Positions 62,089 to 63,125 of a stretch of 64,000 nt of DNA are shown piece after piece. The DNA lies in assembly GCF_041248615.1 (NCBI RefSeq), contig NZ_CP158426.1; one strand, given 5' to 3'. Origin of the DNA: Escherichia coli (GTDB lineage Bacteria; Pseudomonadota; Gammaproteobacteria; Enterobacterales; Enterobacteriaceae). Under the pieces are notes generated by a model. That model saw nothing but the letters and a program-made list of their open reading frames with translations, was not told where the DNA came from and ran no database searches. Numbering within the stretch: position 1 is the first letter of the stretch; each line of letters opens with the position of its first letter. The position numbers were made by a program, and so were the translations under genes.

Positions 62089-62577
62089 CTATGCTACATG
62101 TTTAATTTTCTCTACACGTTTCCGATTTTTAAACGCACTATCCAGAACCGGGTAAATCATAAACAACGAGGCATTAAGGATTTCGTCAACTTCCCGTCGA
62201 CAGGTTGCGAGCGATGGTTTTTGAATGCGCCCGCCGCCACGGCATAACATCTTGCGAGGTCTTGCGACGCGATGATAGTAAGATGCAATGGCGTGCTTGG
62301 AAGAGCCATGAGCGTAGTAGCTGAGGAGGATTCCAAAGGCTTTCTTGTCAATGTACATGACGGAATCGACGACCTGAGAAATCAACATTCCATCATCATC
62401 ATTACACATTGGCCTTGTCATAACTCTTCCCGGCTCTACGCTCTCCATGAACTTCGCTATTACGCTGCTCATGCGCTTTTCCAGACGACCTGAATAAACC
62501 CATGCGCCCCACAGTTCAAGCCAGCCATTCAGCCACTCATGCTGTTCTTTGGTGAGGTTTAGTTCTCTTATGCCCAC
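62089..62577 (-). CDS. late-gene antiterminator Q (phage 21/82-type)
   Basis: 162 aa; position between nin region and tRNA/lysis genes; Cys-rich zinc-binding region. Confidence 0.75.
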
Positions 62578-63125
62578 GCGCCTTCTCCCTGTACCTGAAT
62601 CAATGTGAGATTTCCGCAGAACACTGCCCCAGTATCGATATACATCTGGTTGGCAAATTTGAGTGGTTTCACTGCTGGCGTATGACCAAAGATAAACGTG
62701 TCCGCGCCTTTAATTTCTTTAACGATCCCGTCTTGTGAGTTGCTGATTCGTTCGCGGTTCCAGATTACCTGCTGATGATCAACTGGCTTTCCAAATTCGT
62801 ATTCGTCACAAGGATAATCGGCGTGGCAGATGACATATTTTTTACCTTTGCTCACCAGTTCGATGATTAACGGAAGTTCTTCTGCTTTATGGGCAAGAGC
62901 TTTAGCCAGAATTTCTTTGTCGTAATCGAGATTAAAGAACCAGCCACCGCCATTAAGCAGCCAGTGATTAACGTTTCCACGCTCTGATAAGCCATCAATC
63001 ATCATTTGTTGTCGAATCCAATCGTATCCAGTTTGTTCATAAGGTTCGTGTAGCATCCGTGCAGATCGCCAACCACCCAAATATTTCGGTATTTGCTGCC
63101 ATCAATTCTTTCGTAGATATTCATG
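62568..63125 (-). pseudogene. lambda-type Ser/Thr protein phosphatase (PP-lambda family) with internal frameshifting deletion
   Basis: ATG at about 63125 encodes [40 protein letters not shown] then stop; the rest ([31 protein letters not shown]) continues in another frame; GDxxDRG and GNHE metal-binding motifs are missing. Confidence 0.7.

Follow-up and report, generated by a model that had tools for sequence, protein, structure and literature searches.

The lambda-type serine/threonine phosphatase gene located between ninG and Q in a prophage of Escherichia coli is an orthologue of ninI, the gene for PP-lambda, that has been knocked out by an internal out-of-frame deletion. It lies on the minus strand of a 64,000-nucleotide stretch of contig NZ_CP158426.1, the whole of which is referred to here as the window. 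The explanation favoured here, with a probability of about 93%, is that a dispensable ninI suffered a deletion at microhomology and that the lesion then hitch-hiked neutrally with one prophage lineage. RefSeq already labels this very sequence a frameshifted pseudogene. The features of the damaged gene are as follows.

63124..62568, minus strand: ninI (lambda-type PPP Ser/Thr phosphatase) pseudogene, 557 nt as against 672 nt in the intact gene
63124..63002, minus strand: N-terminal residual ORF of 40 codons and a stop TGA (63004..63002), from the ORF list and its translation
63008..63005, minus strand: deletion junction, the sole surviving copy of the 4-bp direct repeat CAAA, from alignment with intact alleles
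63005..62568, minus strand: C-terminal residual ORF of 145 codons from the ATG at 63005 to the stop at 62570..62568, from the ORF list and the match to 1G5B

Alignment of the locus at the DNA level with the intact ninI of phage phi458 and of Stx2 phage 1717, and with the translated ninI of lambda, revealed one gap, of 115 nt, as the only insertion or deletion. The first-pass annotation, prepared from the sequence alone, had placed a phosphatase gene at 62568-63125 in which 40 N-terminal codons end in a stop and the rest continues in another frame, and had judged by comparison with PP-lambda that about 38 codons with the GDxxDRG and GNHE motifs were gone; a pairwise alignment with lambda ninI was proposed as the check. 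That alignment shows the out-of-frame 115-bp gap and no intact in-frame gene. The coordinates were right to one base, the gene start being 63124, and the two pieces are seen both in the sequence and in the ORF list. The 115 nt amount to 38 1/3 codons and to 37 residues, K41-E77 in the lambda ninI translation from NC_001416, and both GDLVDRG and GNHE do lie within these.

In the intact alleles CAAA stands on both sides of the lost segment, the two copies being 115 bp apart (GACAA followed by CAAAAAAG at one end, CATGAG followed by CAAATGATG at the other). The breakpoint is therefore ambiguous within the four bases of CAAA, and the five possible placements give one and the same product. As 115 is not a multiple of three, the upstream frame meets TGA TGA right at the junction. 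The first of these stops overlaps the ATG of Met79 (ATGA, 63005..63002), so that the 40-codon and 145-codon ORFs share 4 nt. The 145-codon ORF from 63005 corresponds to lambda PP residues 79-221; its frame, which ends in GEGAWA, matches residues 76-221 of the lambda phosphatase 1G5B with an E-value of 1e-94. An ORF of 170 aa started at TTG, with a 162-aa form derived from it at an internal ATG, was rejected as a real start, neither product being present in the public protein collection.

Comparison with phage genomes gave the same picture. A megablast search of the phage records in INPHARED with the 558-nt ninI interval matched 73 records. Among the 30 listed, the query aligned in two pieces on a span 114-115 nt longer than the matched part of the query; the full-length matches cover 673 nt, are annotated as NinI or serine/threonine phosphatase and lie between ninG (or ninH) and Q. 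Nucleotide identity over ninI ranges from 95.6 to 99.3% in these 30 and is at least 95% in all 73. The ninG-ninI-Q module with a Q of 162 aa is shared with phage phi458 (OP434518) and with the Stx2-converting phages 1717 and 2851, to which the locus is 99.3% (phi458) and 96.6% (1717 and 2851) identical outside the gap; these three phages carry the full 672-nt ninI encoding 223 aa, in contrast to the 557 nt found here. The lambda counterpart, NinI (orf221, PP-lambda; P03772, PDB 1G5B), occupies the same position directly upstream of Q. The retained 40 and 145 codons are nearly identical to it, with differences at 4 positions in the N-terminal 40 aa, whereas residues 41-77 are missing here, the frame is shifted, and there is no continuous ORF and neither GDxxDRG nor GNHE.

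The genes on both sides are intact, as had been claimed for them in the first-pass annotation.

63732..63121, minus strand: ninG, intact, 203 aa, matching Pfam NinG with 304 bits over profile positions 1-192 of 193
62577..62089, minus strand: Q antiterminator gene, intact, 162 aa, GTG start, matching Pfam Phage_antitermQ with 87 bits

NinG is identical to lambda NinG at 198 of 203 residues, and Q agrees with that of phi458, an isolated phage, at all 162. The start of ninI overlaps the stop of ninG at ATGA (63124/63121); Q has its own Shine-Dalgarno sequence, GGGAGAAGG, and a 10-nt overlap with the ninI stop. Orthology of the locus is thus indicated by the order ninG-ninI-Q, its place in the PR operon, the ATGA and 10-nt overlaps and the high identity of ninI. 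No ninH was found between ninG (63121) and ninI (63124). Lambda, Sf6 and the K-12-type prophages have ninH ahead of ninI, whereas here ninG abuts ninI; ninH is likewise missing in phi458 and Stx2 phage 1717, which are functional phages, and its absence is thus a matter of module architecture and not of decay. Some submitters have named the fragments 'serine/threonine-specific protein phosphatase 1'. The E. coli phosphatases PrpA/PphA and PrpB/PphB belong with lambda PP to PPP group III, which comprises gamma-proteobacteria and phage lambda (PMC535813). They are, however, separate intact host genes at other loci, while the present gene is the phage ninI by synteny and near-identity.

The key residues were examined in the two residual frames. 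The roles of the individual residues of lambda PP are known from the 1G5B structure and from mutagenesis: D49 and N75 are metal ligands, H76 is the catalytic His, and R53 and R73 bind phosphate. Motif I, GDxHG (D20, H22), is present as GDLHG at residues 19-23 of the 40-aa ORF and is detached from the rest of the domain. Motif II, GDxxDRG (D49, R53), lies inside the deleted 115 bp and is absent from all three forward frames; motif III, GNH(E/D) (N75, H76), is also inside the deleted segment, and R73 is lost with it. The C-terminal His ligands H139 (ICHAD) and H186 (FGHTP, preceded by a conserved Gly) are kept in the 145-aa frame, which is a different reading frame from that of motif I. Against the Pfam family Metallophos (PF00149) the 40-aa piece scored 16.1 bits, below the cut-off of 21.5, as compared with 63.1 bits for the intact NinI of phi458 and 64.3 bits for lambda NinI as controls; the Pfam search with the 145-aa and 170-aa pieces matched no family. 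No continuous catalytic domain above the curated Metallophos threshold is thus present. With D49, N75, H76, R53 and R73 lost and motif I split from the C-terminal His ligands, no product can build the dinuclear metal centre, and we infer from the sequence that no active phosphatase would be made from this locus. GDxHG and GDxxDRG, along with GNH(E/D), make up the PPP family's signature and carry most of its metal ligands (PMC535813). Three of the five sequence features of PPP phosphatases are absent from the ninI remnant, which should therefore be classed as a pseudogene derived from ninI rather than as a phosphatase.

The two residual ORFs could nevertheless be regarded as a working two-cistron locus, in which reinitiation at the ATGA (63005..63002) yields a 145-aa fragment besides the 40-aa peptide. 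The stop/start overlap is the same as that of the natural ninG/ninI junction, the C-terminal frame carries no further lesions, and gene callers call both ORFs. However, the ATG ATG is Met79-Met80 of the parent gene, so that the overlap simply follows from where the break fell; the ATG at 63005 has no recognisable Shine-Dalgarno sequence ahead of it, and the absence of further lesions is what a very recent event would leave (0 substitutions among the carriers). Reinitiation of this kind is accordingly considered very unlikely. A role for the fragment fares equally poorly, whether it is to keep ribosomes on the message up to the start of Q and so to avoid polarity on Q, or to contact N or Q as a non-catalytic NinI remnant. 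Roadblocks in the lambda nin genes are polar on Q (PMC10695390), but Q here is preceded by a Shine-Dalgarno sequence of its own, and the fragment is without the N-terminal core subdomain that holds all three signature motifs and matches no Pfam family.

To trace the deleted allele, a junction-specific query of 44 nt (62985-63028) was used, neither half of which is able to seed on the intact allele. The junction was found in exactly 3 of 5426 complete E. coli genomes, about 1143 of which carry a ninI of the same type. The three are NRZ14408 (R2K29_RS17750), the Tanzanian ESBL isolate PRO_A-1407-6W-A_ESBL (ACW5SE_RS05225) and the UK isolate AB66 (AC9VSG_RS15175). All carry the identical 557 nt and junction, with no difference within the gene, and share the prophage context at lambda attB. 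In each of these RefSeq genomes PGAP marks the gene as a 'frameshifted' pseudogene, either of a 'serine/threonine protein phosphatase' or of a 'metallophosphoesterase family protein'. Gene calls in the public protein collection place the exact 40-aa product on 125 contigs and the exact 145-aa product on 131, with a 144-aa form on 22 more. The fragment-bearing contigs, some 125-150 in number, come from 220 index blocks that include ENA metagenome assemblies, NCBI drafts and Logan assemblies. The 168-aa members annotated 'HNH endonuclease signature motif' in the 90%-identity cluster of the 145-aa fragment have sequences unrelated to NinI and were set aside as a clustering artefact, not a fusion. 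A scan of the viral contigs of IMG/VR for the exact junction gave no match, and all of the 30 listed among the 73 matching INPHARED records keep the intact 673-nt span; within the collections searched, only assemblies of bacterial genomes and of metagenomes have thus yielded the deleted allele.

Eleven carrier loci were fetched, and all 11 agree with the window throughout the 557-nt pseudogene and throughout Q (100% identity). Their surroundings differ. The left arms are of two kinds, one with Gam/Kil/CIII/Ral/SieB/N and the other containing Nmad5; one locus has an IS21-type element in the lysis cassette, two others have IS3-type elements truncating ninG, and the late regions diverge by up to 2.6%. 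An identical junction and pseudogene within differing surroundings suggest one recent deletion, inherited and shuffled within a prophage lineage, and the sequence comparison points to one recent origin in a lineage located at the lambda attachment site.

The prophage itself was delineated as follows.

About 34400-64000: prophage, the part lying in the window, in the lambda attB region and adjoining bioA-ybhB
1-34400: chromosome, with ybhF...moa, uvrB, the bio operon and ybhB
61923-61997, minus strand: tRNA-Asn (GTT), between Q and the holin gene
61842-61917, minus strand: tRNA-Thr (TGT), between Q and the holin gene

The prophage of AB66 abuts ybhC with its integrase end. On the minus strand the genes run ninE, ninF, ninG, the ninI pseudogene, Q, tRNA-Asn, tRNA-Thr, holin, lysozyme, an Rz-like gene, DUF6979, terminase and so on. 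The prophage is a mosaic: its nin/Q/lysis region is lambda-like and its morphogenesis region is of the SEN34-like myovirus type, the morphogenesis genes being 97.5% identical to those of Escherichia phages vB_EcoM-611R5 and 606R2 and not lambda-like. The two phage-borne tRNA genes between Q and the holin gene lie where tRNAs and the toxin genes are located in Stx phages; this site holds no toxin gene, and the holin gene directly follows the tRNA genes. At the tail-fibre end, next to the chromosome junction, are two genes annotated as 'acyltransferase family protein' (about 35228-36373 and 38141-39166), with coordinates transferred from the PGAP annotation of the near-identical NRZ14408 (20897-22042 and 23810-24835 of locus L006). 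These may be lysogenic-conversion cargo that modifies surface polysaccharides.

A side observation concerns the quality of the assembly near ninI. The window and the NRZ14408 chromosome are 99.98% identical over 49.7 kb, with 10 differences, all outside ninI. Nine of the ten (8 SNPs and a 1-nt insertion) fall in 63748-63980, in ninF and the end of ninE, and the remaining one is at 61920, in the spacer between tRNA-Thr and tRNA-Asn.

63725-63896, minus strand: ninF, frameshifted by +1 base, GTGTGCTGCGCATTGCTG as against GTGTG-TGAGCACTGCTG in relatives

The insertion splits ninF into ORFs of 46 and 30 aa. At most of the differing positions the allele is that of LT599830.1 ('phage_14408_1'), a second phage in the NRZ14408 assembly, whose ninE-ninF and tRNA-Asn/Thr segments are paralogous and which has no ninI. 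The ninF of the window has the +1 base of LT599830.1 without its compensating -1, and none of the 11 related loci fetched has this hybrid form. The base at 61920 is also the allele of the paralogous tRNA-Asn/tRNA-Thr pair of the second phage, which strengthens the case for cross-talk between paralogues or for cross-mapping of reads. The patch thus reflects either patchy gene conversion between co-resident prophages or reads cross-mapped during consensus polishing.

The suspicious hybrid alleles of ninF, in the same assembly and about 750 bp away, count against the favoured explanation of the ninI lesion. They bear on the possibility that the true genome has an intact ninI and that the 115-bp gap arose by mis-assembly or a sequencing error, as the ninF patch and the inter-tRNA SNP copy alleles of a second co-resident phage in the way that polishing errors would. 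The ninI deletion is, however, unaffected by such cross-talk, since the second phage of NRZ14408 has no ninI and hence offers no paralogue to cause a collapse, and the NRZ14408 genome has only a single place that matches ninI. The identical junction is present in three complete genomes of different sources (Tanzania, UK and NRZ14408) and in 125-150 public contigs. An artefact is thus extremely unlikely, and the concern about an assembly error raised in the first-pass annotation is answered by the recurrence of the same junction in many independent assemblies.

A broader claim made there, that the locus marks a decay of the nin-region accessory genes, is only weakly supported. The absence of ninH is shared architecture, the ren pseudogene noted below lies outside the window, and the ninF frameshift may be an artefact or a conversion hybrid, so that a claim of decay among the nin genes should not lean on ninF. 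In the carrier genomes ren is annotated as frameshifted (3718-3997 in the relatives L003/L004), and the Tanzanian isolate has a Dam-like methyltransferase gene with an internal stop (4508-5035 of L004), both outside the window. The ren frameshift and the methyltransferase stop suggest some further decay of early-right accessory genes in the prophage lineage.

Under the favoured explanation, microhomology deletion followed by neutral hitch-hiking, 115 bp were deleted between the two copies of CAAA, probably by replication slippage or by RecA-independent illegitimate recombination at the microhomology. The sole basis of the slippage mechanism is a microhomology of 4 bp, which is short and counts against it. 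The event excised codons 41-77 and shifted the frame, so that translation from the normal start now stops after 40 codons at the TGA made by the junction. It probably arose once and recently, and has since been carried by a prophage lineage at lambda attB (bio-ybhC) that is still recombining and gaining IS elements. The lesion is probably neutral for the phage, as ninI is dispensable in lambda and as Q, whose transcription is under N antitermination, comes with a ribosome-binding site of its own. In lambda, ninI and the entire nin region are non-essential and can be deleted, and knock-down of ninI is harmless once Q is supplied (PMC10695390). Contacts of NinI with N and Q were reported from a yeast two-hybrid screen (PMC3224144), and a subtle regulatory cost or benefit of its loss is thus possible.

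The idea that loss of the phosphatase, or of a cis element in the 115 bp, helps the prophage or its host and that the allele was selected is hardly likely at all: although more than 100 assemblies have the allele, in prophages that differ in their left arms, and the deleted segment of phi458 holds a weak terminator-like hairpin, the allele is rare (3 of about 1143 complete genomes with this ninI type), has a single origin without recurrence, and owes its numbers to nothing that hitch-hiking with a successful prophage or clone would not explain. A terminator removed with the 115 bp, or a promoter gained at the junction, could point to a byp- or nin-like effect on Q. In scans of the window and of intact phi458, promoter-like and terminator-like consensus sequences were no more numerous than chance predicts, and the junction makes neither a promoter nor anything else of this kind.

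The correct label for the locus is thus ninI pseudogene, and not two small ORFs or a phosphatase. The overall importance of the finding is small, as it is an annotation call on an ordinary pseudogene of a non-essential gene. The 44-nt junction (62985-63028) provides a precise marker for one lambda-attB prophage lineage across E. coli isolates and gut metagenomes. The locus adds one more natural example of the dispensability of ninI, and it bears on the role of PP-lambda for the phage only by showing that a prophage lineage of wide distribution persists in its absence.
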